Positions 3,001-55,228 of a stretch of DNA of 64,000 nucleotides are shown piece by piece. Under the pieces are notes generated by a model that had not been told where the DNA came from, did not search any database, and was given only the letters and a program-made list of their open reading frames with translations. Within the stretch, counting starts at the first letter, position 1. Each line of letters starts with the position of its first letter. The stretch lies in the NCBI RefSeq assembly GCF_013122565.1, contig NZ_CP053258.1. One strand, given 5' to 3'. This DNA is from Escherichia coli. GTDB taxonomy: Bacteria > Pseudomonadota > Gammaproteobacteria > Enterobacterales > Enterobacteriaceae. The position numbers and the translations under genes were made by a program.

Positions 3001-4233
3001 CTGCCCCGTAATTTTTCCGCCTGCGGCCAGCAAAGACGGCGCTTCCCATTGAACATTTTTCAGACCGTGAGTTGCTTTACTCACCACAAGCCCCAGGGAA
3101 ACCGTCTGCCCGCCCTTGCCTTCAATACGTTCAGGCAGAGCAATACGGATCACTTCAGATTTGCGGTACTCAAGAACGATGTTGTTATTACGCTCAACCA
3201 GGTCATAGCGGCTGCCTGCCAGCATTCGACGCTCGCGAATGCTGTCTGTATCGAGTTGTTTTTGCAGAGGTTCGCCAATCCGATAATTAACTTCCAGGCC
3301 AAAGCGAGTGTCATTCTCACCACTCTTGCCCTGCTTATGCCCGGCACTCAGGGTCAGAAGAGGCACTGGCGTATAGGTCACCTCGGCAGAAATAGCATGC
3401 GGGTCTTTCTGGCGTTTATCTTTACCAAACAGCCCGACTTCATCGCCATAATACTGTTCATACATCAGGCTTGCGCCAAGCTGCGGCCAGGCGGGTAAAT
3501 AGCCCTCAGCACGAATATCCCAGCCATTCGCCGGGCGTTCCTGATAATCCTCAACATCCGGCGATTTTTTCCAGCCAGAAGCCCGGATATAACCATTGGC
3601 GCTCAGTTTCAAATAATCACGCCAGTATTCCGCACCAACACCAATGCGGGTATGACTACGGGATAAATCATGGTCGATAAAGGTGTTCACCCCCGCCATC
3701 CAGTCATTTCCTGAAAAATGACGCCAGCCAAAACCAATATTTGACTGAGTGCGATCATCTGTACGATGTATTGCCCCCTGAGTGAACAACATATTTGTCG
3801 GCGTATCATAAATAGGATAAAGCATTTCCAGAGAAGAATCCTTCAGCGAGAAATCTTTATCGACATTGAGTTTGACGCGCGCAGTACCGTATTTCCCGAG
3901 CCACTCCTGTATTTCCTGGTTAGCTTTAGCGGTGGCCATTCCGGTAATAAAGTTACGTGTCGCATCGCTATCTGGCTGACTGCTTAAAAAATTCCCAGCA
4001 TTTGCGGCAAACGACGCGACATTTTTCTCCACATTATTATCAGCAGCTACTGTGGTATTTTCCATGCTCAACCGTGGCTGAACCGCATGCTGCGCGCGTG
4101 CCGCCATTACTGGGGTAAAGGTGACCGCGAGTGGAAAAAGAACCTGAACAGAGATATTTGCCCACGCCACACAGCGGGCCAGAACTGAATAACGAAATCG
4201 TGGTTGTTTATGACCTGTTTTATAACGCGACAT
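1..4233 (-). CDS. eaeH: Intimin/invasin-like inverse-autotransporter adhesin with tandem bacterial Ig-like (Big) domains (EaeH/FdeC-like); start ATG at 4233-4231, 3' end runs off the window (>=1411 codons in window)
   Basis: Hand translation of minus strand from ATG at 4233 (AGGAAA RBS ~10 nt upstream) gives MSRYKTGHKQPRFRYSVLARCVAWANISVQVLFPLAVTF... then a beta-barrel-like region (GFGWRHFSGNDWMAGVNTFIDHD...) and many ~100-aa repeats of the type ...TLTVVDSYGNPLQGQEVTLTLPQG.... The ORF track omits it because it has no stop in the window. Frame continuity to position 1 was not checked codon by codon. Confidence 0.8.
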   Translation of the reverse strand, partial: MSRYKTGHKQPRFRYSVLARCVAWANISVQVLFPLAVTFTPVMAARAQHAVQPRLSMENTTVAADNNVEKNVASFAANAGNFLSSQPDSDATRNFITGMATAKANQEIQEWLGKYGTARVKLNVDKDFSLKDSSLEMLYPIYDTPTNMLFTQGAIHRTDDRTQSNIGFGWRHFSGNDWMAGVNTFIDHDLSRSHTRIGVGAEYWRDYLKLSANGYIRASGWKKSPDVEDYQERPANGWDIRAEGYLPAWPQLGASLMYEQYYGDEVGLFGKDKRQKDPHAISAEVTYTPVPLLTLSAGHKQGKSGENDTRFGLEVNYRIGEPLQKQLDTDSIRERRMLAGSRYDLVERNNNIVLEYRKSEVIRIALPERIEGKGGQTVSLGLVVSKATHGLKNVQWEAPSLLAAGGKITGQGNQWQVTLPAYQAGKDNYYAISAVAYDNKGNASKRVQTEVVITGAGMSADRTALTLDGQSRIQMLANGNEQRPLVLSLRDAEGQPVTGMKDQIKTELAFKPAGNIVTRSLKSTKSQAKPTLGEFTETEAGVYQSVFTTGTQSGEATITVSVDGMSKTVTAELRATMMDVANSTLSANEPSGDVVADGQQAYTLTLTAVDSEGNPVTGEASRLRLVPQDINGVTVGAISEIKPGVYSATVSSTRAGNVVVRAFSEQYQLGTLQQTLKFVAGPLDAAHSSITLNPDKPVVGGTVTAIWTVKDAYDNPVTSLTPEAPSLAGAAAVGSTASGWTNNGDGTWTAQITLGSTAGELEVMPKLNGQDAAANAAKVTVVADALSSNQSKVSVAEDHVKAGESTTVMLVAKDAHGNAISGLALSASLTGTASEGATVSSWTEKGDGSYVATLTTGGKTGELRVMPLFNGQPAATEAAQLTVIAGEMSSANSTLVADNKAPTVKTTTELTFTVKDAYGNPVTGLKPDAPVFSGAASTGSERPSAGNWTEKGNGVYVATLTLGSAAGQLSVMPRVNGQNAVAQPLVLNVAGDASQADIRDMTVKVNNQLANGQSANQITLTVVDSYGNPLQGQEVTLTLPQGVTSKTGNTVTTNAAGKVDIELMSTVAGEHNISASVNGAQKTVTVKFNADASTGQANLQVDTAVQKVANGKDAFTLTATVEDKNGNPVPGSLVTFNLPRGVKPLTGDNVWVKANDEGKAELQVVSVTAGTYEITASAGNSQPSNTQTITFVADKATATVSGIEVIGNYALADGKAKQTYKVTVTDANNNLLKDSEVTLTASPASLNLEPNGTATTNEQGQAIFTATTTVAATYTLTAQVSQNNGQVSTKTAESKFVADDKNAVLTASSDVQSLVADGKSTAKLEVTLMSANNPVGGNMWVDIQTPEGVTEKDYQFLPSKNDHFVSGKITRTFSTSKPGVYTFTFNALTYGGYEMKPVTVTITAVAEDTAK

Positions 4234-34729: not shown

Positions 34730-35179
34730 TTAATGCTTCAAGGGGAATGACTTCATCAGTAATTCTTCTAAAGAAGAATATAAAAATTCCATTTCATAAG
34801 AGTCATGCAGAAAAACAAATATCTTACCATCTGTATTCATAAGAATAGGGTTTCCGCAGCCATCATCTGAAATAGCATAAAATGAATTCAATATATTTTT
34901 ATCAAGATCTTTATATATTTCCCTAAACTTCAGAGTAAGATCAACTACAGAAGCCTTTCCTACTAAGGAACCATTTTTAAAGGCATGTATAGCTATGCCA
35001 CCAAAGGCCCCACCAAATTTCTTAATAAACTCAATATATTGTATATTGAATTTAATATTTAATATTTTTTCAGCCTGAATGATCTCCTCATCAGAAGCTG
35101 GTATACCATATAGGACCATATCTTGGTCAGATGTTATCTCATCTCTGACTCTTGCTAGCAATTCTTCATTCATACGCAA
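34730..35179 (-). CDS. Predicted immunity protein for orphan toxin 4 (SMI1/KNR4, SUKH-like)
   Basis: 149 aa, AT-rich, directly downstream of an rhs C-terminal toxin module; IQYIEFIKKFGGAFGG motif typical of SUKH immunity proteins. Confidence 0.6.
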   Translation of the reverse strand: MRMNEELLARVRDEITSDQDMVLYGIPASDEEIIQAEKILNIKFNIQYIEFIKKFGGAFGGIAIHAFKNGSLVGKASVVDLTLKFREIYKDLDKNILNSFYAISDDGCGNPILMNTDGKIFVFLHDSYEMEFLYSSLEELLMKSFPLKH

Positions 35180-36297
35180 CCGCCCCCTCTATTGCTTAAA
35201 ACTTTTTCAGCTTGTGATTTCCAGAATTCTTTTTTCCACAGGTTAAATTCTTGACGATTATTTATACCTGAACCTTTTTTATTTCCATTTGGGTGCTGAC
35301 CAGCGTTATTTGTACTTGAACCATGATGTTTATCTGGCATAGCAGTAATTGGCCCTTGTGATTGCTGCCTGTCATGGTGCAATACTATTACATTCCCTTG
35401 CCTATCGCTCGGAGATAAACCAAATGGATGAGGAGCATCATCACTGTTCATAAAAATAATTCTATTAAGCTCGGAATCACTTAAGTGACTTAAATCCGTG
35501 TAACCTGATACATCTAAAGTTAATCCTCTGCTATCAGTAAAAGTAACAGTTAAACCCAGAGGATCGATCCAACTTATTGGATTAGGCGCATATTGGTATA
35601 AGTTTATCCCACCCGCCAGCCCTATCGGGTCCTGACTGATAAACCTCCCGCACTCCGGCGCATAATACCTGAACAGATTGTAATGCAGTCCCGTCTCTTC
35701 ATCATAATACTGCCCCGGCAGCCGCAGCGGTTGCTCAAAGTACGCCCCGCTGTTGCTGATGTCGCCCCGGTTTTCACCAAATCCCGCCTGATAGCCCGCC
35801 CACACCAGCGTCCCGTCCGCCGCGGTCACCTCCTGTACCGTGCCCGTCAGGTCCGTGTGGTAATACCAGATTTTTTGACTCTCTCCGCGCCCGGTGATGG
35901 CGGCCACCGGCGTGTACGGCTGTTCCGCGTCGTACAGGTATGTCCGCTTTCCCTGCCACGTTGTCTCCTGCAACAGCCGGAACCCTTCCCACACAAACGT
36001 TGTCCGGCTTCGTTCTCCCCGGTCGGTATGGAGATTGCTGGTCGCCTTGCTGATGCGCCTGCCCAGCGCATCATACTGATACCGCGTCTCGCTGTTGCTG
36101 CTGATGACCCGCGTTAACTGACCCTGCGCGTTCCACTCCAGCTGTTGGTCCCTGCGCTCTGTCAGTTCGCCCCATTCGTTATAGCGGTAACGGTCACGCC
36201 CGTAGCCCGGCAGGCGGTTATCCGGCACCGCTCCCTGATGCTCATCCGTCAGCAGGTTGCCCGCTTTGTCGTAATAATAATGGTCATGGTCGTACAT
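35170..36297 (-). CDS. Orphan rhs C-terminal toxin module 4: 5'-truncated Rhs core (to DPLGL) plus LHH/HNH-like nuclease-type tip
   Basis: Rhs core homology from about 36345 down to the DPxGL motif, then a divergent ~125-aa tip containing VIVLHHDRQ...KHHG...N...H (HNH/LHH-like). Confidence 0.65.
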   Translation of the reverse strand: MYDHDHYYYDKAGNLLTDEHQGAVPDNRLPGYGRDRYRYNEWGELTERRDQQLEWNAQGQLTRVISSNSETRYQYDALGRRISKATSNLHTDRGERSRTTFVWEGFRLLQETTWQGKRTYLYDAEQPYTPVAAITGRGESQKIWYYHTDLTGTVQEVTAADGTLVWAGYQAGFGENRGDISNSGAYFEQPLRLPGQYYDEETGLHYNLFRYYAPECGRFISQDPIGLAGGINLYQYAPNPISWIDPLGLTVTFTDSRGLTLDVSGYTDLSHLSDSELNRIIFMNSDDAPHPFGLSPSDRQGNVIVLHHDRQQSQGPITAMPDKHHGSSTNNAGQHPNGNKKGSGINNRQEFNLWKKEFWKSQAEKVLSNRGGGCV

Positions 36298-36376
36298 CTG
36301 CCCCGTGCGACTGGTCAGCCAGCCGCTGCGATCATACGCAAAATGCCCCCATCCGCATGCAAGCAGTATTTATCCT

Positions 36377-36682
36377 TTAGGAAAAGAGATTTATAGCTTT
36401 CTCTTGAAGTTCTATACCTATATCCTCAAGTTTGATCAGCTCGTCCTTACTGTACATTCCCTCCCGAAAAGAAAACATTCCATATACATCCATTAGTGCC
36501 AATCCTAAAACTTTTGGAACCATAATTTCATCAGCATATATTTCCGCCAAAAAATCCAGCGCCTTATATAATTCTTCAATTTCATTATCAAAAAAATCTT
36601 TCTTGAGTCTTAATCTAACAGGTATTGAATCATCTCCTAATAATTTATCGACCACTATTTTCAATGCAATCTCTTTATCCAT
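36377..36682 (-). CDS. Predicted immunity protein for orphan toxin 3
   Basis: 101 aa, AT-rich, immediately downstream of orphan module 3. Confidence 0.55.
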   Translation of the reverse strand: MDKEIALKIVVDKLLGDDSIPVRLRLKKDFFDNEIEELYKALDFLAEIYADEIMVPKVLGLALMDVYGMFSFREGMYSKDELIKLEDIGIELQEKAINLFS

Positions 36683-36698
36683 ATATCATTTCCTGTCT

Positions 36699-38315
36699 TT
36701 AACAAGATCTAATAGCATTTGATGGGACATGGCCTTCCACAAGTACTTCTCCAGAACTAACTGCATAGTTACGGGCTGGTCCTTTTAATCCAGCATCCGT
36801 TGCTTTCTCTACCGTGGATAAGTCAATAATATTCCGATTACCTTTAACATCAGGAATAACATCGTCAGTATCAAATGTAACTGTAGTTTGGCCTGGTTCA
36901 CGGTATCGTACTGCTACATATTCATTTACGGTAGTTGAAATGAATTGTGAGCCTTTAAACGAATCATTACTACCATTTCTAACATGACCAGCAGCGCTCA
37001 TTCCTCGCCCCGGGTTCTTTGCAGATAGCCCCTCACTAATAGATTCATCCGCACGAATATTTCGAAATACCTTGATTAAGCCAAGAGGATCAATCCAGCT
37101 AATCGGATTCGGCGCATACCTGTAAAGATTCAGACCGCCACGGATCGAAATCGGATCCTGACTGATAAACCTCCCGCACTCCGGCGCATAATACCTGAAC
37201 AGATTGTAATGCAGCCCCGTCTCTTCATCATAATACTGCCCCGGCAGCCGCAGTGGTTGCTCAAAGTACGCCCCGCTGTTGCTGATGTCGCCCCGGTTTT
37301 CGCCAAATCCCGCCTGGTAGCCCGCCCACACCAGCGTCCCGTCCGGCGCGGTCACCTCCTGTACCGTGCCCGTCAGGTCCGTGTGGTAATACCAGATTTT
37401 TTGACTCTCTCCGCGCCCCGTGATGGCTGCCACCGGCGTGTACGGCTGTTCCGCGTCGTACAGGTATGTCCGCTTCCCCTGCCACGTTGTCTCCTGTAAC
37501 AGCCGGAACCCTTCCCACACAAACGTCGTCTGCCGCTGTTCCCTCTGGTCCGTATGGCGGCCATATGTCGCCTTGCTGATGCGCCTGCCCAGCGCATCAT
37601 ACTGATACCGCGTCTCGCTGTTGCTGCTGATGACCCGCGTTAACTGGCCCTGCGCGTTCCACTCCAGTTGCTGGTCCCTGCGCTCTGTCAGTTCGCCCCA
37701 TTCGTTATAGCGGTAGCGGTCACGCCCGTAGCCCGGCAGGCGGTTATCCGGCACCGCTCCCTGATGCTCATCCGTCAGCAGATTGCCCGCTTTGTCGTAA
37801 TAATAATGGTCATGGTCGTACATCTGACCCGTGCGACTGGTCAGCCAGCCGCTGCGGTCATAGCTGAACACCAGGCAACCGCGCAGTTTGTCATTGATGC
37901 CGCCGACTTCACCGTCTGCGTTCCAGATATAATCCCGCGCTGTCACGCTGTCTTTCTGCGCCGGGGGGTTACCGGCCTGCTGCGGATTCTGGCTGCCGCC
38001 TGGCAGGCTGCGCTGCCAGCTTAACCGGTTATCGGCGTTGTAGCCGCTGAACGTCGCCAGTTTCCCCTGGGTGCGCATCACCTGACGGTGCAGGCTGTCA
38101 CGCTCATATTCACTGACCGTGATACCGTCCAGTGCCGTCTGGAGCAGATGCCCGCTGCCGTAGTAAAGATGGCTGAGATGCTGCCCGTCCGGCAGGGTAA
38201 TGCCGGTGGGATTGCCCAGCGCGTCACGCTGATATTTTATGCTGCCGTGCACGCTGTGCTCTGCCGTCAGCCAGCCGCTGCGGTCATACGCAAAACGCAC
38301 CGTGTCCGCCTGCAA
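36699..38315 (-). CDS. Orphan rhs C-terminal toxin module 3: 5'-truncated Rhs core plus unique ~125-aa tip (possible ADP-ribosyltransferase-like R/STT motifs)
   Basis: Starts inside the rhs core ([17 protein letters not shown]...), ends DPLGL + IKVFRNIRADESISEGL...GSQFISTTVNEY.... Confidence 0.65.
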   Translation of the reverse strand: MQADTVRFAYDRSGWLTAEHSVHGSIKYQRDALGNPTGITLPDGQHLSHLYYGSGHLLQTALDGITVSEYERDSLHRQVMRTQGKLATFSGYNADNRLSWQRSLPGGSQNPQQAGNPPAQKDSVTARDYIWNADGEVGGINDKLRGCLVFSYDRSGWLTSRTGQMYDHDHYYYDKAGNLLTDEHQGAVPDNRLPGYGRDRYRYNEWGELTERRDQQLEWNAQGQLTRVISSNSETRYQYDALGRRISKATYGRHTDQREQRQTTFVWEGFRLLQETTWQGKRTYLYDAEQPYTPVAAITGRGESQKIWYYHTDLTGTVQEVTAPDGTLVWAGYQAGFGENRGDISNSGAYFEQPLRLPGQYYDEETGLHYNLFRYYAPECGRFISQDPISIRGGLNLYRYAPNPISWIDPLGLIKVFRNIRADESISEGLSAKNPGRGMSAAGHVRNGSNDSFKGSQFISTTVNEYVAVRYREPGQTTVTFDTDDVIPDVKGNRNIIDLSTVEKATDAGLKGPARNYAVSSGEVLVEGHVPSNAIRSC

Positions 38316-38488
38316 CTAGCTGTTCAGATGGTGAATTTAACTACACCTTCTGGTTATCACCGTATTCAAGTGCCGCGATGCAACTACTGGGAAACTACAC
38401 TCATTCTCTTATTATTTTTAGAAATTTTCATCTATTAAATAATACACATGACCGATATTATTTAACCCTGCTGGGTATAACTGAAAAA

Positions 38489-39340
38489 TTATTTATTTTT
38501 AATTAAATTCATTAAATCCCAAACATTGCTATCATAATGATTGAAACCTTGAATCACAAGATAAGACAATGCTTTCATATCCAACAAAAATCTGATTTTC
38601 CCGTCTATAATTTTTGTATTTTCCGTTATAAACAATCGTTCCAATTTAACAAGATTACTTATTTTAGCTACGCTTGGAATATCACCCATTTTTGAAAAAG
38701 ATATTTTTTTAATTGAAGGTAATTTACTTACATCTTCAATGATTGACACTGCCATTTTTTTGCATAAAGATAAAGACACTTCTTCTATATTTTTCAAACC
38801 ATCTAAAAAAGTCGTGTCCGAAGCCTTAGATAATCCAGATAACTTGATGCTCCTTAAAGTCTTGATAGATGATAAATTAGGGATTGTTTGAATATTGCTA
38901 TTTTTTATCTCTAATGATTGCAAGAATGATCTCCCCGCAACATGCTCTTTTTTTTCTTTAAAATCTATCAATGTTATTTTTTCCAGAGTTCTGTGATTAA
39001 ACAAATTATCAATTCCATTTCGACCTATTAATACAGCCTCTTTTAAAAATGGGAAATATGATAAATCAAGTCTCATTTTATCATCATTCAAAAGATGGAT
39101 GAGTTGTATTTTTTTCAACGAATACAGTTGTGATATATCCTTTATTTTATTGCCTGTGATATATATTTCATTAATGAAATTAATTTCATCAAGAAATGAT
39201 AAATCAGTTATAAGCGGTGACAAAACCAACCCGTTAACTTTCTTTTCCTTCATCGTGTCAACAATATGACTTGTATCGTCATGCTTTTCATACACAAGGA
39301 CACGACTTCCCCGTACACCATAATTTTCCACTAGTCTCAT
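38489..39340 (-). CDS. Leucine-rich-repeat protein (283 aa), positioned as the immunity gene of orphan toxin 2
   Basis: AT-rich; repeated L..L..L.L..N.I LRR-like units (LSFLDEINFINEIYITGNKIKDISQLYSLKKIQLIHLLND..., IQTIPNLSSIKTLRSIKLSGL); 20 bp downstream of orphan module 2. Confidence 0.55.
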   Translation of the reverse strand: MRLVENYGVRGSRVLVYEKHDDTSHIVDTMKEKKVNGLVLSPLITDLSFLDEINFINEIYITGNKIKDISQLYSLKKIQLIHLLNDDKMRLDLSYFPFLKEAVLIGRNGIDNLFNHRTLEKITLIDFKEKKEHVAGRSFLQSLEIKNSNIQTIPNLSSIKTLRSIKLSGLSKASDTTFLDGLKNIEEVSLSLCKKMAVSIIEDVSKLPSIKKISFSKMGDIPSVAKISNLVKLERLFITENTKIIDGKIRFLLDMKALSYLVIQGFNHYDSNVWDLMNLIKNK

Positions 39341-39359
39341 ATATTTCCCCTTAAATAAA

Positions 39360-40820
39360 TCAACACTCCCCCTTCACTCTAAAATCTTGATCTGAAACAT
39401 TTCCTGTATTTGGTGGTCGTTTTTCATTACTGGTTACTCCTCTTCCTCCATTTTTAGCTATTTTCATTGCCTCTAAATTATTTAGCCATTGTTTACTAAT
39501 TCCAGCATATTTATCAAAATTCAACGAATCCAACATTGCCTGAGTTAACTTTCCACTTCGGGCATGTTGCAACATTCTCTGATATAGATTTTTTGTTTGA
39601 CCTGCATACATTTTACCCGCACCTTCATCAAAAAACTCATAAATTGCTTGCCCTTTATATTTTGCAGTAACATCTCTTATTTGTTCTAAAAAATCACTAG
39701 CGAGTCTTACTAATCCCCAAGGATCAATCCACCTCAGCGGATTCGGCGCATACCTGTAAAGATTCAGCCCACCCCGGATCGAAATCGGGTCCTGGCTTAT
39801 GAACCTTCCGCACTCCGGCGCATAATACCTGAACAGATTGTAATGCAGCCCCGTCTCTTCATCATAATACTGCCCCGGCAGCCGCAGCGGTTGCTCAAAG
39901 TACGCCCCGCTGTTGCTGATGTCGCCCCGATTTTCTCCAAATCCCGCCTGGTAGCCCGCCCACACCAGCCTCCCGTCCGGCGCGGTCACCTCCTGTACCG
40001 TGCCCGTCAGGTCCGTGTGGTAATACCAGATTTTTTGACTCTCTCCGCGCCCGGTGATGGCCGCCACTGGCGTGTACGGCTGTTCCGCGTCGTACAGGTA
40101 TGTCCGCTTTCCCTGCCACGTTGTCTCCTGCAACAGCCGGAACCCTTCCCACACAAACGTCGTCCGCCGCTGTTCCCTCTGGACCGTATGGCGGCCATAT
40201 GTCGCCTTGCTGATGCGCCTGCCCAGCGCATCATACTGATACCGCGTCTCGCTGTTGCTGCTGATGACCCGCGTTAACTGGCCCTGCGCGTTCCACTCCA
40301 GTTGCTGGTCCCTGCGCTCTGTCAGTTCGCCCCATTCGTTATAGCGGTAACGGTCACGCCCGTAGCCCGGCAGGCGGTTATCCATCACCGCGCTCTGATA
40401 CTCGTCCGTCAGCAGATTGCCCGCTTTGTCGTAATAATAATGGTCATGGTCGTACATCTGCCCCGTGCGGCTGGTCAGCCAGCCGCTGCGGTCATACGCA
40501 AAGCGCACCGTGTCCGCCTGCATGTGGTGCAGCCGTTCCCCTTCTTTCGTCGGGGTGAGCGTCACTTCCGTTATCTGGTCAAGACGGTTGTAGCTGAAGG
40601 TCCGTGTACTGTGCTGCGTGTCACTGCGCAACAGGCGGCCCAGCGCATCACGCTCCTGCCGCTCATTACGCCCCCCGCCTTCTGTACCCTGCGTCTGGAT
40701 GATGACCGGATACCCGCCCGCATTCAGCGCCAAATGGCTGAGAGAAGCGGGATTTGAGATCGGCACGGGCGTTACCGTGAAGATCTCGGAGGGATGTCTG
40801 ATCCTGCTTGCGGATAACAA
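39360..40820 (-). CDS. Orphan rhs C-terminal toxin module 2: 5'-truncated Rhs core with an internal deletion, plus GIY-YIG nuclease-like tip
   Basis: Core homology starts at ...[14 protein letters not shown] (40727); lacks ~130 codons between the two YDRSGWLT repeats; after DPWGL the tip reads AIYEFFDEGAGKMYAGQTKNLYQRMLQH (GIY...YIG...R...H pattern). Confidence 0.65.
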   Translation of the reverse strand: MLSASRIRHPSEIFTVTPVPISNPASLSHLALNAGGYPVIIQTQGTEGGGRNERQERDALGRLLRSDTQHSTRTFSYNRLDQITEVTLTPTKEGERLHHMQADTVRFAYDRSGWLTSRTGQMYDHDHYYYDKAGNLLTDEYQSAVMDNRLPGYGRDRYRYNEWGELTERRDQQLEWNAQGQLTRVISSNSETRYQYDALGRRISKATYGRHTVQREQRRTTFVWEGFRLLQETTWQGKRTYLYDAEQPYTPVAAITGRGESQKIWYYHTDLTGTVQEVTAPDGRLVWAGYQAGFGENRGDISNSGAYFEQPLRLPGQYYDEETGLHYNLFRYYAPECGRFISQDPISIRGGLNLYRYAPNPLRWIDPWGLVRLASDFLEQIRDVTAKYKGQAIYEFFDEGAGKMYAGQTKNLYQRMLQHARSGKLTQAMLDSLNFDKYAGISKQWLNNLEAMKIAKNGGRGVTSNEKRPPNTGNVSDQDFRVKGEC

Positions 40821-40914
40821 CGAAGTACAGGAACTGCGCAGGGAGCTTTATCAGGTTAAACAGGCAGTTAAGGGGATGCGGGACGGGATGTTTAGTGTGC
40901 TGAACGAAAGTTAA
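40728..40914 (+). pseudogene. SymE-like gene, 5'-truncated copy (3' ~190 bp plus hairpin duplicated from 34497-34725)
   Basis: ...SAKWLREAGFEIGTGVTVKISEGCLILLADNNEVQELRRELYQVKQAVKGMRDGMFSVLNES nearly identical to the 34450 copy; upstream part of the track ORF is antisense rhs sequence; perfect hairpin at 40923-40955. Confidence 0.55.
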
Positions 40915-40975
40915 ATAATAAAAAAGCCGGGAAGGTAAATAAGCTTCCCGGCTTTCCACAACAATTTTAACTTAA

Positions 40976-41464
40976 TTAATCATAAGCATCGCCGTAATTT
41001 TCATATTTCCAATAAATATATTTACCACCTGAGCTATATAATTTATGCAATAATTCTGTAAAAGTCATTGCAATAATTGGACAACTACCTACAACGCCAT
41101 GTATCTCATAATTGCTATCATAACAGCGTCCATTTCTTTCTGTAGAAAAATCAATGGATAAATAATCATTATTATCGGTCCTGCAAATTAAGTACCATGA
41201 AGATGATATATCATCCTCACATGGCTCACCAACTATAAATTTATTTGCCTGTAATATTTCATTATTTTTCAAAATAGTGAAGGAGATTTCCTGCTCTTCA
41301 GAGCAAAACAATTTTATTCCATTACATATTTTGTAAAAACGAACAACATCATCAGGATATTTTAAATAATCAGATGGTAATAAAGGCAAATTACCATCTG
41401 GTGGAATAACTTCACATCTGTTATCATTTTTTATCAAGTCAAGTAATTCATCAATGCCATTCAT
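40976..41464 (-). CDS. Predicted immunity protein for orphan toxin 1
   Basis: 162 aa, AT-rich, immediately downstream of orphan module 1. Confidence 0.55.
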   Translation of the reverse strand: MNGIDELLDLIKNDNRCEVIPPDGNLPLLPSDYLKYPDDVVRFYKICNGIKLFCSEEQEISFTILKNNEILQANKFIVGEPCEDDISSSWYLICRTDNNDYLSIDFSTERNGRCYDSNYEIHGVVGSCPIIAMTFTELLHKLYSSGGKYIYWKYENYGDAYD

Positions 41465-41473
41465 ATTACCACC

Positions 41474-43312
41474 TTAAAAAATAACAGTATCAAACTTCCC
41501 AGAGTATATAAACTGGTTCAATGCCCGGTAATATGCTTCCCTACTGGCAACAGGAACATTTGCGGCATCAAACATTCGTTCAGTAAGATCTTTCATTTCT
41601 CTGCTACTTACTGTTGTCCAATCCACTTTCCCACCAACTCTTCTTCCGGTTTTCTGCTCTAACCAATCTCTATATACTTTTTTTGTTGCAGCATGATTAG
41701 CCTCGGATAATGCAATTGTTGGTGACTTTGAAGGATATTTCCCTCCATAAGATGGCACATTCTTAGACATCCAAATATCAAGCACACCATGATGGTTTTC
41801 TAAAGAGGAATTAATTGGTCGATAAGGAACAACATCAAACTCTTTAACTTCACCGCACTTAAGTCCAAGGGGATCTATCCACCCCAGCGGATTCGGCGCA
41901 TAAGCATACTGGTTCAGCCCACCCGCCAGCCCTATCGGGTCCTGGCTTACGAACCGCCCGCACTCCGGCGCATAATACCTGAACAGATTATAGTGCAGCC
42001 CCGTCTCTTCATCATAATACTGCCCCGGCAGCCGCAGCGGCTGTTCAAAGTACGCCCCGCTGTTGCTGATATCGCCCCGGTTTTCGCCAAATCCCGCCTG
42101 GTAGCCCGCCCACACCAGCGTCCCGTCCGCCGCGGTCACCTCCTGTACCGTGCCCGTCAGGTCCGTGTGGTAATACCAGATTTTTTGACTCTCTCCGCGC
42201 CCCGTGATGGCGGCCACCGGCGTGTACGGCTGTTCCGCGTCGTACAGGTATGTCCGCTTTCCCTGCCACGTTGTCTCCTGCAACAGCCGGAACCCTTCCC
42301 ACACAAACGTTGTCCGGCTTCGTTCTCCCCGGTCCGTATGGCGGCCATATGTCGCCTTGCTGATGCGCCTGCCCAGCGCATCATACTGATACCGCGTCTC
42401 GCTGTTGCTGCTGATGACCCGCGTTAACTGGCCCTGCGCGTTCCACTCCAGCTGCTGGTCCCTGCGCTCTGTCAGTTCGCCCCATTCGTTATAGCGGTAG
42501 CGGTCACGCCCGTAGCCCGGCAGGCGGTTATCCATCACCGCTCCCTGATATTCATCCGTCAGCAGGTTGCCCGCTTTATCGTAATAATAATGGTCATGGT
42601 CATACATCTGCCCCGTGCGGCTGGTCAGCCAGCCGCTGCGGTCATAGCTGAACACCAGGCAACCGCGCAGTTTGTCATTGATGCCGCCGACTTCACCGTC
42701 TGCGTTCCAGATATAGTCCCGCGCTGTCACGCTGTCGCTGTGTGACGGGGGTGTGGCTGTCTGCTGTGGGTTCTGGCTGCCGCCTGGCAGGCTGCGCTGC
42801 CAGCTTAACCGGTTGTCGGCGTTGTAGCCGCTGAACGTCGCCAGTTTCCCCTGGGTGCGCATCACCTGACGGTGCAGACTGTCACGCTCATATTCACTGA
42901 CCGTGATACCGTCCAGTGCCGTCTGGAGCAGATGTCCGCTGCCGTAGTAAAGATGGCTGAGGTGCTGCCCGTTCGGTAACGTGATGTCGGTGGGATTGCC
43001 CAGCGCGTCACGCTGATATTTTATGCTGCCGTGCACGCTGTGCTCTGCCGTCAGCCACCCGCTGCGGTCATACGCAAAGCGCACCGTGTCCGCCTGCATG
43101 TGGTGCAGCCGTTCCCCTTCTTTCGTCGGGGTGAGCGTCACTTCCGTTATCTGGTCAAGACGGTTGTAGCTGAAGGTCCGTGTACTGTGCTGCGTGTCAC
43201 TGCGCAACAGGCGGCCCAGCGCATCACGCTCCTGTCGCTCATTACGCACCCCGCCTTCTGTACCCTGCGTCTGGATGATGACCGGATACCCGCCCGCATT
43301 CAGCACAAACAT
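41474..43312 (-). CDS. Orphan rhs C-terminal toxin module 1: 5'-truncated Rhs core (~1.6 kb retained, homology up to ~43468) plus unique ~130-aa tip
   Basis: Core identical in register to the main rhs from ...[12 protein letters not shown] to DPLGL; tip KCGEVKEFDVVPYRPINSSLENHHGVLDIWMSK... (possible xHH nuclease-like motif, weak). Confidence 0.65.
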   Translation of the reverse strand: MFVLNAGGYPVIIQTQGTEGGVRNERQERDALGRLLRSDTQHSTRTFSYNRLDQITEVTLTPTKEGERLHHMQADTVRFAYDRSGWLTAEHSVHGSIKYQRDALGNPTDITLPNGQHLSHLYYGSGHLLQTALDGITVSEYERDSLHRQVMRTQGKLATFSGYNADNRLSWQRSLPGGSQNPQQTATPPSHSDSVTARDYIWNADGEVGGINDKLRGCLVFSYDRSGWLTSRTGQMYDHDHYYYDKAGNLLTDEYQGAVMDNRLPGYGRDRYRYNEWGELTERRDQQLEWNAQGQLTRVISSNSETRYQYDALGRRISKATYGRHTDRGERSRTTFVWEGFRLLQETTWQGKRTYLYDAEQPYTPVAAITGRGESQKIWYYHTDLTGTVQEVTAADGTLVWAGYQAGFGENRGDISNSGAYFEQPLRLPGQYYDEETGLHYNLFRYYAPECGRFVSQDPIGLAGGLNQYAYAPNPLGWIDPLGLKCGEVKEFDVVPYRPINSSLENHHGVLDIWMSKNVPSYGGKYPSKSPTIALSEANHAATKKVYRDWLEQKTGRRVGGKVDWTTVSSREMKDLTERMFDAANVPVASREAYYRALNQFIYSGKFDTVIF

Positions 43313-43517: not shown

Positions 43518-48474
<4,957 letters not shown>

Positions 48475-48497: not shown

Positions 48498-50711
48498 TTA
48501 TTCAGAAACGTCCGGGGTAGGTAACGGGGCAATATCATCCGCAGTCATGGCTGTGCCGCCATCCGGATTCATATCAATGCCACTGCCAATGAGTTGCATA
48601 ACATCGCTGGTGTGCAGTAAAAGTTGTTTTCCGCAAAACTCAATCGAGCCATCCTTGTGTAATACAAGCGCTGCATTGCCGCAACGAAGGGTAAATTGAT
48701 CGCCAACATCCAGACGATATGTCGTTCCGACATTGATGGTTTGAGCCAGTTTGACGGAAAGACCATCATTTTTTGTGATGGTGGCATTACGGTCTTCTCC
48801 CACGCTGATGGTTTCATTTTTGACAATGGTTTTTATGCGATCGACCATGACCGTGTGGGTTTCATTGTTTTTTACCGTGGTATTGAGGTCTTTTTCCGCA
48901 TGGAACTTCACCTCTTCTGCCCCCGTTTTATCGTCAAAGCGCAGCATGTTTCCGTTGGTCGGCCCGCCATACAGCGAGTGGCTGAATATCCCGCTCTGCG
49001 AGGCCATACCCGGCAGTCCCCACGGCGGCATGGTGTCCTGGTTATAGGTGCGCCCTACAATGATCGGTAAATCCGGGTCGCCGTTTTTGAAATCCACCAG
49101 CACTTCCTGACCGATGCGCGGGATCTGGATCATGCCGAATCCTTTCCCTGCCCACGGATAGCTGACGCGGATCCAGCAGGAGCTGTTTTCGTCATTATTA
49201 CCGTAACGATCCCAGCCAAACTGCACCTTCACCCGTCCATATTTGTCCGTCCAGATTTCCTGCCCCGCCGGGCCGGTGACGATGGCGCTCTGCGGGCCTT
49301 TGGTGTGGGGTTTGCTCAGGGTTCGCTGTGGGCGGTAAACTTCGCTGGTTGGGTGCAGTTCAAACGTGGTGACATAGGTAAAATGCTGATCCTGGCCGCT
49401 GTGCTGCGCATTGTCCCGTAAAAACAGCGTGGTCTGTACCAGCAGGTATTCCTGATTAATTTCTGCCGTCGGGTGATTCATCAATGTAAAGGTGTACCCG
49501 GTCATGAGGGTACGGATATGACCGGCCCCATGTGCCCGGCTGCCTGGGCTACGCTGCGCTTCCATACGAATACGCGTCAACATCTCGCCTTCGCCCGTAG
49601 TGAAGTAATCACCAGGCCATTCGTAATGCTCGTATTCAGCATGACCGGTATCACGCGGACTGGCCACGGTACTTTTAAGCAGCGAACGAGGCTTCATAAA
49701 ATCAAAATCGTCCATCACCCACTTTCCAGTACGCAGCCTCTCACTGGCCGTAATGGTGTGAATAAATTCCTTATCCAGTTTCAGCCCTTCCTGGTGCCAC
49801 TCCACCAGTGGCGAGTCAGGGCACGCTTTATGACCATTGATGGCATCCGCCAGCACCAGCGTGTGGCTGTTCTCGCTGTGCTCAAACCACCAGTAAATTC
49901 CCCACTCCTGCATCAGGCGCTGGATGAAATCAAAATCCGTTTCACCGTACTGTACCTGCCAGGCACGAGGTGGATAATTTTCCACCAGCCGTTTTTCCAC
50001 CGGAAAGGAATATTCATCCAGTACTTCATCGAGAATATCCACCACGGTTTTATTCTGGAACGCTTTGTAGTCGCTGGTGTGGGTCAGCAGTTTCAGCCAC
50101 GGTTCAATGCGTAATTCATACGTTACCGAGCGGCCCTCATGGCCCACCACCCGCGCCGCTGTCACCAGCCCGCTGATATGCCGTTTGCCGCCGCCGTCCA
50201 GTTCGATATTGACGCACAGATCTTTGCCCACCATGGGCTGAAGCGGCAGGTTAGCAGCGGGGGAAACGTACCCCAGGTTCAGGGCGTCCGGCGTTTTAAG
50301 CTGTACTGTGTAGGAAAACAGATTCCCAAGCCCTTCCGAACCATTCATGCCTGCAAACAAAAGCATCTGCGGCGGCACCGCACTACCACTTACTGTGACG
50401 TTATGCGCCCCCGGACCACCTGCAGCAAGCGACGCCGCCGCATCCTGAACTGCACCAGCCATATCCGATATCCCTGCTGCGGCGGCTGCGGCTTGCGCAG
50501 CAGCTACTGCGGCTTTAACCAGACCTGACGGTTCCGGCAACGCACCAAACAGGTCCGCCGCTGCCTGTTCTACCATCTGCTCGGCTGCATCAGCTACATC
50601 GGTTGCGGCTGAACCAGGGCTTATACCACCACTTTCGCCAGCTATTGGTGGTGTGGTGATGACGGGTCCACCGTTTCCAACTGGTTTATTACCCGTAGAT
50701 ACAAAACTCAT
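48498..50711 (-). CDS. vgrG: T6SS spike protein VgrG (737 aa as the longest ORF, includes a ~100-aa Ala/Gly-rich N-terminal extension; true start uncertain)
   Basis: gp27/gp5-like VgrG body ([25 protein letters not shown]..., C-terminal ...[19 protein letters not shown]...); N-terminal [22 protein letters not shown]...[10 protein letters not shown] segment precedes the conserved start of the VgrG fold. Confidence 0.85.
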
Positions 50712-50735
50712 GATATTTGCTCCTTTAATACCGGA

Positions 50736-51122
50736 TTAAAATCTAGCCCCTGGTGGCCAAAAAATATAAGTAATAACTCTCCATTGCCCGTCTTTATAAT
50801 GAAACCAACATGTCAGATTCAAATCCCCCTGCAAATTCCAGAACATTTCCTTAATAGGAACATCTTGAAATTCAGGATCTGTTATGCGATAAGTTTGATT
50901 CAAGCCGATATAATACTCACCAACAAATTTATATCGTGGCCTCACGAACTCATGAGCAGGCGGCCCATATTTTTTCATAAAAAAGATGTCATTACTTCCA
51001 TCATGTATATCATTTTCTTCATAATATTTGGTGGATTGAGCAACTGCAGAAGGCTTGAAAACATTCACTGTAGTTATGTAAGTTATTGAAAGAAAAATCA
51101 CTATAATGCAGAAAAATTTCAT
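50736..51122 (-). CDS. Predicted periplasmic immunity protein 1 (signal peptide; paralogue of 52819..53181)
   Basis: 128 aa, MKFFCIIVIFLSITYITTVNVF... signal peptide; shares ...EFQDVPIKEMFWN..DLNLTCW.HYK.GQW.VI...WPPG..F with the paralogue; 4-nt overlap with upstream effector gene. Confidence 0.6.
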   Translation of the reverse strand: MKFFCIIVIFLSITYITTVNVFKPSAVAQSTKYYEENDIHDGSNDIFFMKKYGPPAHEFVRPRYKFVGEYYIGLNQTYRITDPEFQDVPIKEMFWNLQGDLNLTCWFHYKDGQWRVITYIFWPPGARF

Positions 51123-51820
51123 TTGGTTACATTCAATAAAGTAAATTTAGTTTCAGGCATTATGACATTCAACGTTATAGTTGCGTTTTTAAGGTATCGT
51201 TCCCGAAGCTCCATTCCCACATTCATCAACCCACTAATATCTCCAACATACGGAGACGAAGAATCATAATCATCATCTAAGTAACCAAGTACATGTCCGG
51301 CTTCATGAGGTATATTTACTTGCAACGTATTGTTACAGTTAATACATTTCGCTACTTTTTCCAGGTCCGCTGAATCAACATGAACCGTACTGTTTTTAAA
51401 ATCAACATATGTTCTTAAATCAGCACCAGGCAAAACCTTTGTTGCAATAACCAACCAGTCTTCATTCTGAGATGCAGAAATTATTCTTACATCAAAAGGC
51501 AAAGCTTTACCCTGAAATTTTTTAGCGAACTCAGATTCACCGGAAACAGAATAAGTTATTTTCCCATTCCATGCCTGCTGAACAGATAAATATATCGCTC
51601 GCATAAAAATAGCTTTTTCCCATATAGTCCAGTCATCTGTAACGGTATTATCCTTATACCACTCATACTTCCATCTTATCACAGCCGTAATCGAACCAGT
51701 ATTTTGATTTAATAAATACGTCCTCCTACCATCCTTATGTATAATGATATCGCCATCAATATTTGTTTTTTCATAGTATTCGGCCAGCAAACTATTCTCA
51801 TCATATTTAAGCTTGGTCAT
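51119..51820 (-). CDS. Candidate T6SS effector 1: HExxH zinc-metallopeptidase-like protein (233 aa)
   Basis: HEAGHVLGY motif plus conserved block LMNVGMELRERYL shared with the 268-aa paralogue; AT-rich; no signal peptide; followed by a signal-peptide protein. Confidence 0.6.
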   Translation of the reverse strand: MTKLKYDENSLLAEYYEKTNIDGDIIIHKDGRRTYLLNQNTGSITAVIRWKYEWYKDNTVTDDWTIWEKAIFMRAIYLSVQQAWNGKITYSVSGESEFAKKFQGKALPFDVRIISASQNEDWLVIATKVLPGADLRTYVDFKNSTVHVDSADLEKVAKCINCNNTLQVNIPHEAGHVLGYLDDDYDSSSPYVGDISGLMNVGMELRERYLKNATITLNVIMPETKFTLLNVTK

Positions 51821-52032: not shown

Positions 52033-52794
52033 CTACACCTGCCAGGCGCGGGGGGGATAATTTTCCACCAGCCGTTTTTCCACCGGAAAGGAATATTCAT
52101 CCAGTACTTCATCGAGAATATCCACCACGGTTTTATTCTGGAATGCTTTGTAGTCGCTGGTATGGGTCAGCAGCTTCAGCCATGGCTCAATGCGTAATTC
52201 ATACGTTACCGAACGGCCCTCATGGCCGACCACCCTCGCCGCCGTCACCAGCCCGCTGATATACCGTTTTCCGCCACCGTCCAGTTCAATGTTGACGCAC
52301 AGGTCTTTGCCCACCATGGGCTGAAGCGGCAGGTTAGCAGCGGGGGAAACGTACCCCAGGTTCAGGGCGTCCGGCGTTTTAAGCTGTACTGTGTAGGAAA
52401 ACAGATTCCCAAGCCCTTCCGAACCATTCATGCCTGCAAACAAAAGCAGCTGCGGCGGCACCGCACTACCACTTACTGTGACGTTATGCGCCCCCGGTCC
52501 ACCGGCAGCAATCGACGCCGCCGCATCCTGAACTGCACCAGCCATATCCGATATCCCTGCTGCGGCGGCTGCGGCTTGCGCAGCAGCTACTGCGGCTTTA
52601 ACCAGACCTGACGGTTCCGGCAACGCACCAAACAGGTCCGCCGCTGCCTGTTCTACCATCTGCTCGGCTGCATCAGCGACATCGGTTGCGGCTGAACCAG
52701 GGCTTATACCACCACTTTCGCCAGCTATTGGTGGTGTGGTGATGACGGGTCCACCGTTTCCAACTGGTTTATTACCCGTAGATACAAAACTCAT
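52033..52794 (-). pseudogene. vgrG: vgrG 5' fragment (N-terminal ~255 codons duplicated; body replaced)
   Basis: Near-identical to the first ~780 bp of vgrG at 49935-50711, including the Ala-rich N-terminal segment; homology breaks near 52017-52036. Confidence 0.75.
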
Positions 52795-52818
52795 GATATT
52801 TGCTCCTTTAATACCGGA

Positions 52819-53181
52819 TTAAAATTTGGATCCTGGCGGCCAATAAACTCGGGATATAACTATCCATTTACCATTTTTATAATGAAGCCAACATGTTAAA
52901 TTTAGATCTTTATTAACATTCCAAAACATCTCCTTAATAGGAACATCTTTAAATTCAGGATTATTTGAAGGGTAAGTCCGTTCTATGCCACCATAATAAA
53001 TACCTACAAAATCATGCCTTGGGTTTATAAAATAATGTTCAGGAGAACCATATTTTCTCACTAGTGAATCTTCATCATCCCCCCACTGAACATCTTTGTT
53101 ATGCATCTCACTGGCAAAAATATCTAGAGTTACAAGCAATATCAATAACGTAAAAAATAGAGCGATTTTCTTCTGGATCAT
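52819..53181 (-). CDS. Predicted periplasmic immunity protein 2 (signal peptide; paralogue of 50736..51122)
   Basis: 120 aa, MIQKKIALFFTLLILLVTLDIFA signal peptide; conserved C-terminal block with paralogue. Confidence 0.6.
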   Translation of the reverse strand: MIQKKIALFFTLLILLVTLDIFASEMHNKDVQWGDDEDSLVRKYGSPEHYFINPRHDFVGIYYGGIERTYPSNNPEFKDVPIKEMFWNVNKDLNLTCWLHYKNGKWIVISRVYWPPGSKF

Positions 53182-53984
53182 TTTATTACACTCGCAACAG
53201 AAAACGTAGTTAAGGGATATACTAAATTCAAGTCAATACAGACACCTTCCAGGTAGCGTTCCCGAAGTTCCATCCCAACATTCATTAACGCGGCAGTATC
53301 TATTTTATATTTAGACACAGGCTTACCAAACTTATCAAGTTCATATTCATCCTCCAGATAACGAATCATATGTCCAATTTCATGAACTATATTTACCTGA
53401 TAAAAACCACATATTGACTGATTCTCTGGAGCACATTTTTCTGATAACGAAGTATCTTTAAAATAAAAATGAGCAAACCGATTTTTCCAGTTAACATAAG
53501 GCCTGCCATCATCATTACCAGGAACGGTTCTTAATACGTCTACATTCCAGTGTTCTTTTTGATGGACCGGAATCATATTTATGCTGAAAGGCAATCTTTT
53601 ACTCTTGAATTTCTCAGCAAAATCAGAGTCCCCTGAGACAGATAAAAATATCTTATCATTCCATCCATAACAGATTGCAGAAAATGATTCATATATAAAA
53701 CTAACTTCATCCAGGTATGTCCAGTTATCTCCTACATTGTTCTGATTCACCCAGTTAAATTTCCATCTCATTAATAATGCAATGTCGCCTGTATCACTAT
53801 TCAGGATATATTCGCCATGTTCTGTATTCATCCTGAGACACTTCCCATCTTCTACGGTGTCAGGGCAAAACTTATGCATGAGTTTAATAAAGAATTCATG
53901 CGATAGATTTATTTTACTCTCTCCAACAACACCATCTACATGTGTTGTGAGCGAACCAGATTTATTCCCTGAAGAAGAACTCAT
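53178..53984 (-). CDS. Candidate T6SS effector 2: HExxH zinc-metallopeptidase-like protein (268 aa)
   Basis: HEIGHMIRY motif and LMNVGMELRERYL block; first ~10 codons and the 25 bp upstream resemble the vgrG 5' end (MSSSSGNKSGS vs [11 protein letters not shown]). Confidence 0.6.
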   Translation of the reverse strand: MSSSSGNKSGSLTTHVDGVVGESKINLSHEFFIKLMHKFCPDTVEDGKCLRMNTEHGEYILNSDTGDIALLMRWKFNWVNQNNVGDNWTYLDEVSFIYESFSAICYGWNDKIFLSVSGDSDFAEKFKSKRLPFSINMIPVHQKEHWNVDVLRTVPGNDDGRPYVNWKNRFAHFYFKDTSLSEKCAPENQSICGFYQVNIVHEIGHMIRYLEDEYELDKFGKPVSKYKIDTAALMNVGMELRERYLEGVCIDLNLVYPLTTFSVASVIK

Positions 53985-54311: not shown

Positions 54312-54773
54312 CTACTCATCCGTACAACCCAGCCCCCGGCGCTGAACCACTTCACTGGCAAACGTTGCTCCGGTTTTTTTCATTATTCCCTGCTGGATTT
54401 TTTGTAACTCCGGGTATACAACCCGCTCACATTCATTTATTTCCCATATGTCACCCGTCTTAGGACTAACCGAAAACAACCCTAAATAGTCTGTTGCTCC
54501 AGCAGTCGGCGTATCATAGCCAAGACTAAAATCATAATATCCGGGATGAGGCGCATTGCCCTGACCATCCTGTAAATCTCCATCAATAAAAATCCCTTCC
54601 AGCGATAAATTATACTTTTGGTGCCTGAGTACAATAATAAGCAGTTTTTCCGCCTGTGCTTTCGTCATCCCTTCGCGGTTTATATCTGATAAATTAAATT
54701 CAGACGTATTCCCCTGAACGTAGCAAACCGCAGAGGCAAGAAGAAAAAAAACAAATATTATTTTACGGGGCAC
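54312..54773 (-). CDS. Predicted periplasmic immunity protein for the glucosaminidase-like effector (signal peptide)
   Basis: 153 aa, MPRKIIFVFFLLASAVCYVQG signal peptide; overlaps the upstream effector stop. Confidence 0.55.
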   Translation of the reverse strand: MPRKIIFVFFLLASAVCYVQGNTSEFNLSDINREGMTKAQAEKLLIIVLRHQKYNLSLEGIFIDGDLQDGQGNAPHPGYYDFSLGYDTPTAGATDYLGLFSVSPKTGDIWEINECERVVYPELQKIQQGIMKKTGATFASEVVQRRGLGCTDE

Positions 54774-55228
54774 GCCATTCTCCTTCCGACCATAATAATA
54801 ATGTCAGCAGTTTTTTTGGCATAATTATCTGTTCCGCCTGTGCTACTATCTCCAGAATTAAATCCGGCCTTTACCAGAGCATCACAGAAAGCCAAAGCAT
54901 CCTTTATGTCTCTGGCTGCATTACCATATTTTATTGCAAAAGATCGTGCACAGATTGAAAAAGACGGAAAAGTAGCCACCCGGGTTTTCTTGTTACCGTG
55001 CGGACGGATTTCGCCTGACTGAAATGATGCAGGGGCATGCAGGGAGAAATAGTTGTTATATTCCCTGGCAATACGGCCTGTACCATACTGGCTCTCCGCC
55101 GCGGCAAGCCCCAGAATATTTTCCACAGGAACATTAAGTTGTTTAGCGATTAATTCACATTCTTTCAGATGCTGCTGAACAAACCTTACTGCATTAACAT
55201 CATTACAGGCTTTGTCATAAGACCCCAT
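54758..55228 (-). CDS. Candidate T6SS glycoside-hydrolase effector (GH73 / FlgJ-type glucosaminidase-like, Tge-like)
   Basis: 156 aa; ILGLAAAESQYGTGRIAREYNNYFSLHA matches the GH73 catalytic-Glu region pattern (A..ES.wG.......NN.FG); no signal peptide; followed by a signal-peptide protein. Confidence 0.55.
   Translation of the reverse strand: MGSYDKACNDVNAVRFVQQHLKECELIAKQLNVPVENILGLAAAESQYGTGRIAREYNNYFSLHAPASFQSGEIRPHGNKKTRVATFPSFSICARSFAIKYGNAARDIKDALAFCDALVKAGFNSGDSSTGGTDNYAKKTADIIIMVGRRMACPVK

Follow-up and report, generated by a model that had tools for sequence, protein, structure and literature searches.

The stretch of DNA analysed here, hereafter the window, comprises 64,000 nucleotides of the Escherichia coli contig NZ_CP053258.1 (assembly GCF_013122565.1). 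Our subject is the vgrG (tssI) gene at 48498..50711 on the minus strand, which is defined by the ORF listing and by family matches and encodes a protein of 737 amino acids that includes an N-terminal tail; its N-terminus reads as quoted in a preliminary description of the window. The T6SS genes tssK, tssL, tssM and tagF lie upstream of vgrG, and downstream of it, also on the minus strand, are a gene for an Eag-type chaperone of the DcrB/DUF1795 family (48031-48474; Pfam DcrB, E 2.4e-35) and one for a PAAR-Rhs toxin (43871-48010), in which an Rhs core, YD repeats and a PAAR domain are recognised.

Directly upstream of vgrG there is a pair of minus-strand genes (50736..51820). The first (51119-51820) encodes a 233-amino acid protein with a HEAGH motif and the second (50736-51122) a 128-amino acid protein with a signal-like N-terminus, and neither protein gave a match in Pfam, NCBIfam or the PDB. 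Next comes a second, truncated copy of the 5' end of vgrG, a 253-amino acid ORF at 52033..52794 (minus strand) that holds a second copy of the tail at 52495-52794, followed by a second pair of genes (52819-53984) that is paralogous to the first (39% and 44% identity); in the window, the upstream pair has been duplicated together with the 5' end of vgrG. The duplicate is about 98% identical to vgrG from -40 to +770 relative to the ATG and the two tail copies differ by a single amino acid, which agrees with the earlier remark that the tail is conserved in the duplicated fragment. Its equivalent in two other E. coli loci (L002 and L008) is a pseudogene, annotated as 'phage late control D family protein', whose C-terminus is missing.

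The domain content of the protein is that of a complete VgrG. Specifically, Pfam recognises the gp27-like hub domain (Phage_GPD) at residues 126-434 (49410..50336, minus strand; E 1.9e-101), by which point the canonical fold is under way, the OB-fold (Phage_base_V) at residues 489-556 and the C-terminal beta-helix (Gp5_trimer_C) at residues 573-680. The curated models TIGR03361 (554.6 bits, cutoff 186) and TIGR01646 (415.5 bits, cutoff 122) are both matched far above their cutoffs. With the hub, OB-fold and beta-helix predicted, the curated cutoffs exceeded and the gene lying in a T6SS cluster, the product of 48498..50711 is assigned as VgrG/TssI, and an E. coli protein in the public collections (P0069) is 100% identical to it. 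Beyond Gp5_trimer_C there remain 57 residues, and no family match was found with Pfam or the curated models between residue 680 and the end of the protein at residue 737, so that it lacks the hallmark of an 'evolved' VgrG.

At the other end of the protein there is a long segment ahead of the canonical fold. The TIGR03361 match runs from residue 112, which is model position 7; residues 13-16 of two VgrGs of solved structure (PDB 4MTK and 7Q5P) pair with residue 112 of the query; and the tssI coding sequence of Burkholderia ambifaria starts 14 codons ahead of the site that matches residue 104. The onset of the conserved fold is therefore near residue 100-112 and, by these alignments, the window VgrG exceeds the canonical VgrG N-terminus by about 90-100 residues. 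The preliminary description had stated that the longest ORF begins some 100 codons before the conserved fold, and Pfam, TIGR03361, the solved structures and the Burkholderia gene all confirm this. We treat codons 1-100 (50412..50711, minus strand) as the tail.

Translation start of vgrG

The ATG at 50711 is almost certainly the translation start of vgrG, which makes the tail part of the protein. A Shine-Dalgarno sequence, AAGGAG, is found 8 nt upstream of this ATG (50720..50725, minus strand) and has a predicted anti-Shine-Dalgarno duplex energy of -7.9 kcal/mol, a value equalled or beaten at just 1.2% of in-gene positions. The Shine-Dalgarno sequence (AAGGAG or AAGGAA) and the ATG are kept at eight E. 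coli loci, at an Escherichia sp. locus, in Citrobacter amalonaticus and in Salmonella. The end of the upstream gene lies 24 nt from the ATG, and an in-frame stop 9 codons 5' of the ATG means that no earlier start of the ORF is possible. The NCBI/RefSeq annotation uses the long start in all eight of the E. coli loci inspected.

The alternative is that translation starts at Met84 (50460..50462, minus strand), the internal methionine of MAGAVQD that had been suggested earlier as the possible true start, or at another downstream codon, in which case the roughly 100 codons upstream would be an untranslated leader. There is indeed an in-frame ATG at 50462 with a weak GGGA upstream of it, and canonical VgrGs start near this point. 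However, the pairing at Met84 (-4.9 kcal/mol) is unremarkable, with 24% of in-gene positions as strong or stronger, and a start there would leave an operon gap of about 270 nt or larger. Moreover, Met84 is replaced by isoleucine in two E. coli alleles (L006 and L007), is absent or shifted in further alleles, and in Salmonella the nearest methionine is displaced relative to it. The tail is retained in 120 of 120 full-length homologues. No promoter-like site was found on the gene strand within the tail, codons 1-83 show purifying selection in the vgrG frame with all indels in frame, and the Shine-Dalgarno sequence and ATG of codon 1 are conserved across three genera. Taken together, these observations make an internal start extremely improbable, and the suggestion that MAGAVQD marks the true start is not upheld. 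The long form in the annotation is thus almost certainly the correct one, which is relevant to the cloning or modelling of this VgrG.

Composition, layout and predicted structure of the tail

Residues 1-105 contain 29 alanines and 15 glycines, in keeping with the earlier account of an Ala/Gly-rich N-terminal extension of about 100 amino acids, and the net charge of the tail is -7. The same account called the segment GC-rich like the gene body, and this stands only in part. The tail has a GC content of 58.7%, against 53.2% in the body, but the first two codon positions account for the excess, and at the third the tail has less GC than the body (GC3 0.41 compared with 0.61); the richness therefore reflects Ala/Gly codons rather than general base composition.

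From the N-terminus the tail starts with a conserved cap, MSFVSTxNK, of which MSFVST..K is invariant, and continues with a variable Gly/Ser/Thr/Pro-rich stretch that contains TTPPIxGE, where TTPP and GE are conserved. These first 30 or so residues are coil-like and are followed by three helix-prone, Ala-rich segments. An acidic helix-prone segment (..AEQMAEQAA..LFG) leads to a motif of 12 residues (codons 58-69; 50505..50540, minus strand) and then to a poly-Ala/Gln tract (codons 70-79; 50475..50504, minus strand), while the third helix-prone segment has GGPGAH at its end, after which the canonical fold begins. The 12-residue motif is the most conserved stretch of the tail and shows no variation in any of three alignments (A1, A2 and A3) covering Escherichia, Salmonella and Citrobacter; in the tail, column entropy reaches its minimum in the block of residues 61-75. 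The poly-Ala/Gln tract, in contrast, has an allele-dependent length, with in-frame indels among 43 distinct tails, and is largely deleted in some alleles and duplicated in others. The MSFVST cap, TTPP and the 12-residue motif, in that order ahead of a 16-residue stretch, place the window protein in the SPI-6-type VgrS group.

The Pfam scan found no significant family in the tail (best match Bromo_coat, E 0.14, compositional), and neither did the scan against PHROGs, where the best match was a tape-measure family (E 0.055, 13 bits, also compositional). AlphaFold2 (AF2) run on the tail alone returned a pLDDT of 51 and a pTM of 0.23, with coil at residues 1-31 and helices at 32-56, 64-78 and 85-96, a low-confidence result that we use for helix propensity only; the full-length protein, modelled on an alignment of 16 sequences, had a mean pLDDT of 31. 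On these grounds, namely the lack of a Pfam family, the low AF2 confidence and an invariant motif set amid variable flanks, the tail is probably a flexible one that has no stable fold of its own and carries a docking motif.

A membrane-inserting or glycine-zipper character was also considered for the tail and is rejected on hydropathy and charge. The maximum of the Kyte-Doolittle mean over 19 residues is 1.47 (residues 64-82), which is below the transmembrane level, the runs of small-xxx-small spacing are made of alanine and not glycine, no regular GxxxG zipper is seen, and the net charge is negative.

Selection and variation in the tail

The homologue set consisted of 120 full-length proteins of 723-738 amino acids from E. 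coli and Salmonella, with 43 distinct tail sequences. The differences among their tails are substitutions and in-frame indels, the latter mainly in the poly-Ala tract, and in the alignment of the 120 proteins the column entropy of the tail is several-fold above that of the body. Pairwise dN/dS was calculated for tail codons 1-100 by the method of Nei and Gojobori. For the window against E. coli L006, dS is 0.67 and dN 0.066, a ratio of 0.10 (0.19 for the body); against Salmonella, dS is 1.52 and dN 0.257, a ratio of 0.17; and against Citrobacter the ratio is 0.18, with dS saturated in both of the latter comparisons. Overall the ratio for the tail ranges from 0.10 to 0.25, with dS from 0.7 to above 1 and up to saturation. 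Codons 46-72 have values of 0.02-0.18, and some sub-segments of the tail in some pairs reach 0.39-0.7. By these ratios, codons 1-100 are under purifying selection in the vgrG frame.

Antisense ORFs run across the tail, at 50139-50528 on the plus strand and as a copy at 52222-52611. They are probably a by-product of GCN-rich codons, and the pattern of selection fits the vgrG frame.

Distribution of the tail

When residues 1-102 were searched with phmmer against 1.84 billion cluster representatives, 26 proteins were returned with E ≤ 0.001. Their identity to the query is 58% or more and, with few exceptions, the alignment starts at their first residue (many are fragments); we therefore take them to belong to the same VgrG lineage; no relative of the tail outside this lineage was found among the 1.84 billion representatives. 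Word-indexed single-sequence searches and profile searches gave matches solely in E. coli, Salmonella and Shigella. When a single genome of each species was scanned with strict peptide patterns, two loci were found, in an Escherichia sp. and in Citrobacter amalonaticus, and the narrow distribution was later confirmed by phmmer. In a tblastn search of plasmids and chromids with residues 1-290, VgrG matches were obtained in 500 records, and among the 30 of these that were listed none of the matches outside Escherichia and Salmonella (Ralstonia, Burkholderia, Rhizobium and others) extends upstream of residue 103, where their alignments begin. The 5' region of vgrG is present in 144 of 5426 complete E. 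coli genomes. By all of these searches, the tail is confined to a single VgrG lineage, present in Escherichia, Salmonella and Citrobacter, and has no detectable source.

The genomic context of this lineage is an SPI-6-type cluster with the order tssM-tagF-...-vgrG-eag-PAAR-rhs. In Escherichia and Citrobacter, the tailed vgrG is always preceded by a gene pair encoding an HE[AIL]GH-protein and a small protein. The Salmonella locus examined keeps the tail, the Shine-Dalgarno sequence and the ATG, but the HExxH pair is absent from it.

Comparison with related spike proteins

The tail was already known, in that it is annotated in RefSeq for E. coli and Salmonella and has been remarked on for Salmonella VgrS. 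The VgrS protein of Salmonella Typhimurium (STM0289, or SL1344_0284) is an orthologue of the window VgrG, with 86-91% identity over 100% of the length, and its crystal structure (PDB 9MLP) is the closest solved structure. It shares with the window VgrG the layout of the tail, the invariant motif, the Shine-Dalgarno sequence with ATG and the tssM-tagF-...-vgrG-eag-PAAR-rhs context. In the poly-Ala and GISD region the E. coli tail has a few residues more, and the VgrS locus examined has no upstream pair of the HExxH type, unlike the window.

Full-length VgrS was insoluble, and residues 1-80 were removed as "predicted disorder" to leave a soluble protein, VgrS(81-729); the removed segment is not discussed further by the authors (bioRxiv 10.1101/2024.12.20.629533). 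The construct does not contain the invariant motif of the tail. In crystals, VgrS(81-729) is a trimer with an unusually wide (~52 Å), open and domain-swapped gp27 cup, and in gel filtration it did not bind Hcp2 (bioRxiv 10.1101/2024.12.20.629533). The authors argue that the open conformation may come from crystal packing or from the absence of PAAR, suggest that the large gp27 cup could hold cargo, and suspect the N-terminal tag of interfering with Hcp binding (bioRxiv 10.1101/2024.12.20.629533); if that suspicion is right, the N-terminal end of VgrS would be near the Hcp face. In Serratia VgrG1, an N-terminal His6 tag is compatible with function (PMC13373197), and additions at the N-terminal end can therefore be compatible with firing.

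Canonical VgrGs, such as P. aeruginosa VgrG1 (PDB 4MTK and 4UHV) and the VgrG of PDB 7Q5P, have the same hub, OB-fold and gp5-like beta-helix, corresponding to residues 112-724 of the query, but they start just 13-16 residues ahead of the point where the alignment begins and lack an N-terminal tail. The 'evolved' VgrGs, such as VgrG1 and VgrG3 of V. cholerae, carry C-terminal effector or adaptor-binding extensions at the tip that enters the target first. They resemble the window VgrG in having an extra segment beyond the structural core; however, their extensions are folded enzymes or adaptor sites, whereas the tail described here lies at the other, tube-proximal end, and no fold is predicted for it. 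Known elaborations of VgrG are thus at the C-terminal tip, while this conserved tail would sit where the spike joins the Hcp tube.

The phage tail tape measure proteins lie in the tube lumen with one end in the hub. The tail is like them in its Ala/Gly-rich, helix-prone composition, but it has about 100 residues rather than many hundreds and is fused to the hub. We have rejected the idea that the tail is itself a tape measure, as the best PHROG match is the 13-bit one given above and nothing points to the measuring of length. Our search of the literature on N-terminal extensions of VgrG turned up only PAAR/IglG cases and the VgrS preprint. Of these, the PAAR-like protein IglG of Francisella has, according to the title of the report, a unique N-terminal extension that is required for virulence (PMC5014421). 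IglG is thus an earlier case of a T6SS spike component whose N-terminal extension is peculiar to one lineage, although it is a different protein in a different position in the spike and shows no sequence similarity to the window VgrG.

Possible roles of the tail

We propose, with slightly more confidence than doubt, that the best explanation as a whole is a translated, flexible tail that docks at the tube-proximal base of the spike. Canonical VgrG begins at the base of the hub, on the face that takes up the first Hcp ring (a passage in a review that cites Renault et al. bears on this point), and the tail would therefore emerge at the tube-proximal end. There the invariant 12-residue motif may dock onto a partner, for which the hub cup, the first Hcp ring and the surrounding baseplate are candidates, and such docking could help the hub to reach or keep a closed, assembly-competent state. 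That the tail acts by an interaction inside the machine, at the junction of hub, tube and baseplate, is in our view its most likely role, put forward tentatively.

Four published observations on VgrS fit with a role at the junction, namely the insolubility of the full-length protein, the open cup of VgrS(81-729), its failure to bind Hcp2, and the suspected interference of the tag. On the other side, the tail varies more than the body in column entropy and, in places, in dN/dS, the length polymorphism of the poly-Ala tract speaks against a tightly packed element, and the open cup may have the causes that the VgrS authors propose.

Another reading, which we consider unlikely, is that the tail is a lineage-specific plug or primer that faces the lumen or the cup and gates or primes initiation of the Hcp tube. 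Three tail copies, together about 30 kDa, would occupy the enlarged gp27 cup or else the first Hcp ring and hold the hub closed, and the open, domain-swapped structure of VgrS(81-729) and its lack of Hcp2 binding would then be consequences of deleting the tail. To our knowledge, the T6SS has no tape-measure or tube-initiator protein, and a plug or primer function would be without precedent there.

The motif could instead tether cargo by bringing to the spike base an effector, an adaptor or Hcp loaded with an effector; the upstream HExxH protein or another effector of the cluster would be examples. In favour of this, the HE[AIL]GH and small-protein pair always precedes the tailed vgrG in Escherichia and Citrobacter, in the window the duplication takes in the pair as well as the vgrG 5' end, and the authors of the VgrS study see room for cargo in the large gp27 cup (bioRxiv 10.1101/2024.12.20.629533). 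Yet Salmonella loci keep the tail, Shine-Dalgarno sequence and ATG without this pair, and in the window the two tails are nearly identical behind pairs that share only 39-44% identity. For these two reasons we have lowered our estimate that the tail and the HExxH pair are functionally linked, and recruitment of cargo in general seems to us a minority prospect, if one to be taken seriously. Less probable again is that the tail has no specific function and is a tolerated low-complexity appendage, kept because nothing is gained by losing it. No other part of the protein varies as much, it shows indels and lacks both a fold and homologues, and VgrGs of the canonical kind function without it; but a neutral appendage sits badly with a 12-residue motif and an MSFVST cap that are invariant in three genera despite saturated synonymous sites, with an overall dN/dS of 0.1-0.25, and with the loss of the tail in none of the 120 natural full-length alleles.

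The tail might instead be cargo that is itself delivered, an Ala-rich and weakly hydrophobic peptide held in the lumen of the hub or tube that would act on the membrane of the target cell much as glycine-zipper translocation segments do. A parallel is offered by the effector Tde1, whose translocation is reported to be aided by a glycine-zipper segment (PMC10240207), and the mean hydropathy of residues 64-82, the small-xxx-small runs and the insolubility of full-length VgrS (bioRxiv 10.1101/2024.12.20.629533) could be read in the same way. Against this, the hydropathy is under the usual transmembrane threshold and the tail is negatively charged (net -7). Moreover, the poly-Ala tract differs in length between natural alleles and can be mostly missing from them, and neither Pfam nor phmmer, the latter among the 1.84 billion representatives, showed a similarity to known translocation domains. 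We regard delivery of the tail as very unlikely.

The choice between docking at the spike base and these other roles has differing consequences. Were the tail merely a tolerated appendage, nothing would change. If it controls closure of the hub or priming of the tube, T6SS assembly in E. coli and Salmonella would have a lineage-specific step and the structural interpretation of VgrS would need to be revisited, as the sole structure of this type of VgrG was obtained with most of the tail, including the invariant motif, cut off.

Gene pairs and a duplicated vgrG 5′ end

Directly upstream of the tail-bearing type of vgrG in Escherichia and Citrobacter lies an unnamed gene pair, which in the window is found on the minus strand both next to vgrG (50736-51820) and as a second, paralogous pair (52819-53984), and which is also present in locus L010 (1865-2976). 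The larger member (233-268 aa) has a conserved, zinc-metallopeptidase-like HE[AIL]GH motif, and the smaller (120-128 aa) has a signal-like N-terminus; between the two window pairs the members are 39% and 44% identical. The corresponding pairs in the eight E. coli comparison loci (L001-L008) are annotated as 'hypothetical protein', and we found no match for the pair in Pfam, NCBIfam, PHROG or PDB. Judged from sequence, the pair resembles a T6SS effector/immunity family that is yet to be characterised.

The vgrG 5′ end is itself duplicated, with window positions 52033-52834 being ~98% identical to 49940-50751, a stretch that comprises ~770 nt of vgrG and 40 nt upstream; two of the E. coli loci, L002 and L008, have the equivalent arrangement, and there its annotation is that of a pseudogene. 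Each copy is preceded by a different effector/immunity-like pair and, because the duplicated 5′ ends follow different pairs, the pair together with the vgrG 5′ end behaves as an exchangeable cassette.

In the Salmonella locus L012, the region 5′ of vgrS, the orthologue of vgrG, is an AT-rich gap of ~400 nt (3604-4000), which still holds a 3′-end remnant of the small signal-bearing gene of the pair (..ggctggttgcattataaag..) and keeps the same SD as the window vgrG. This suggests that the HExxH-type pair was lost from the Salmonella lineage of L012.

Probable vgrG remnants and neighbouring genes

In at least eight E. coli genomes (H53-H60, among the matches listed), similarity to the vgrG 5′ region query is confined to its first 160 nt, namely the upstream region and approximately the first 24 vgrG codons, after which an Rhs C-terminal region follows. 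The protein P0068 joins VgrG residues 1-24 (...TTPPIA) straight to Rhs sequence, an arrangement that looks like the outcome of a deletion which took out vgrG, the chaperone gene eag and most of rhs. In the protein P0066, VgrG tail residues 1-35 run into an unrelated C-terminal sequence rich in Lys and Glu, which opens like a VgrG C-terminal tail (..TADEVAPPPP..); this protein, too, probably arose by an internal deletion.

The main PAAR-Rhs gene is followed downstream by four orphan C-terminal fragments of Rhs (375-612 aa; 35170-43312, minus strand), which each carry the Rhs-associated core and all differ in their tips; a neighbouring 283-aa protein gives a weak, leucine-rich-repeat-like (internalin) match. 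Between tagF and the vgrG cassettes sit two genes (54312-55228, minus strand) whose products are a protein with a glucosaminidase domain and an immunity protein of the Tgi2PP family; the same two are found in the Salmonella locus.
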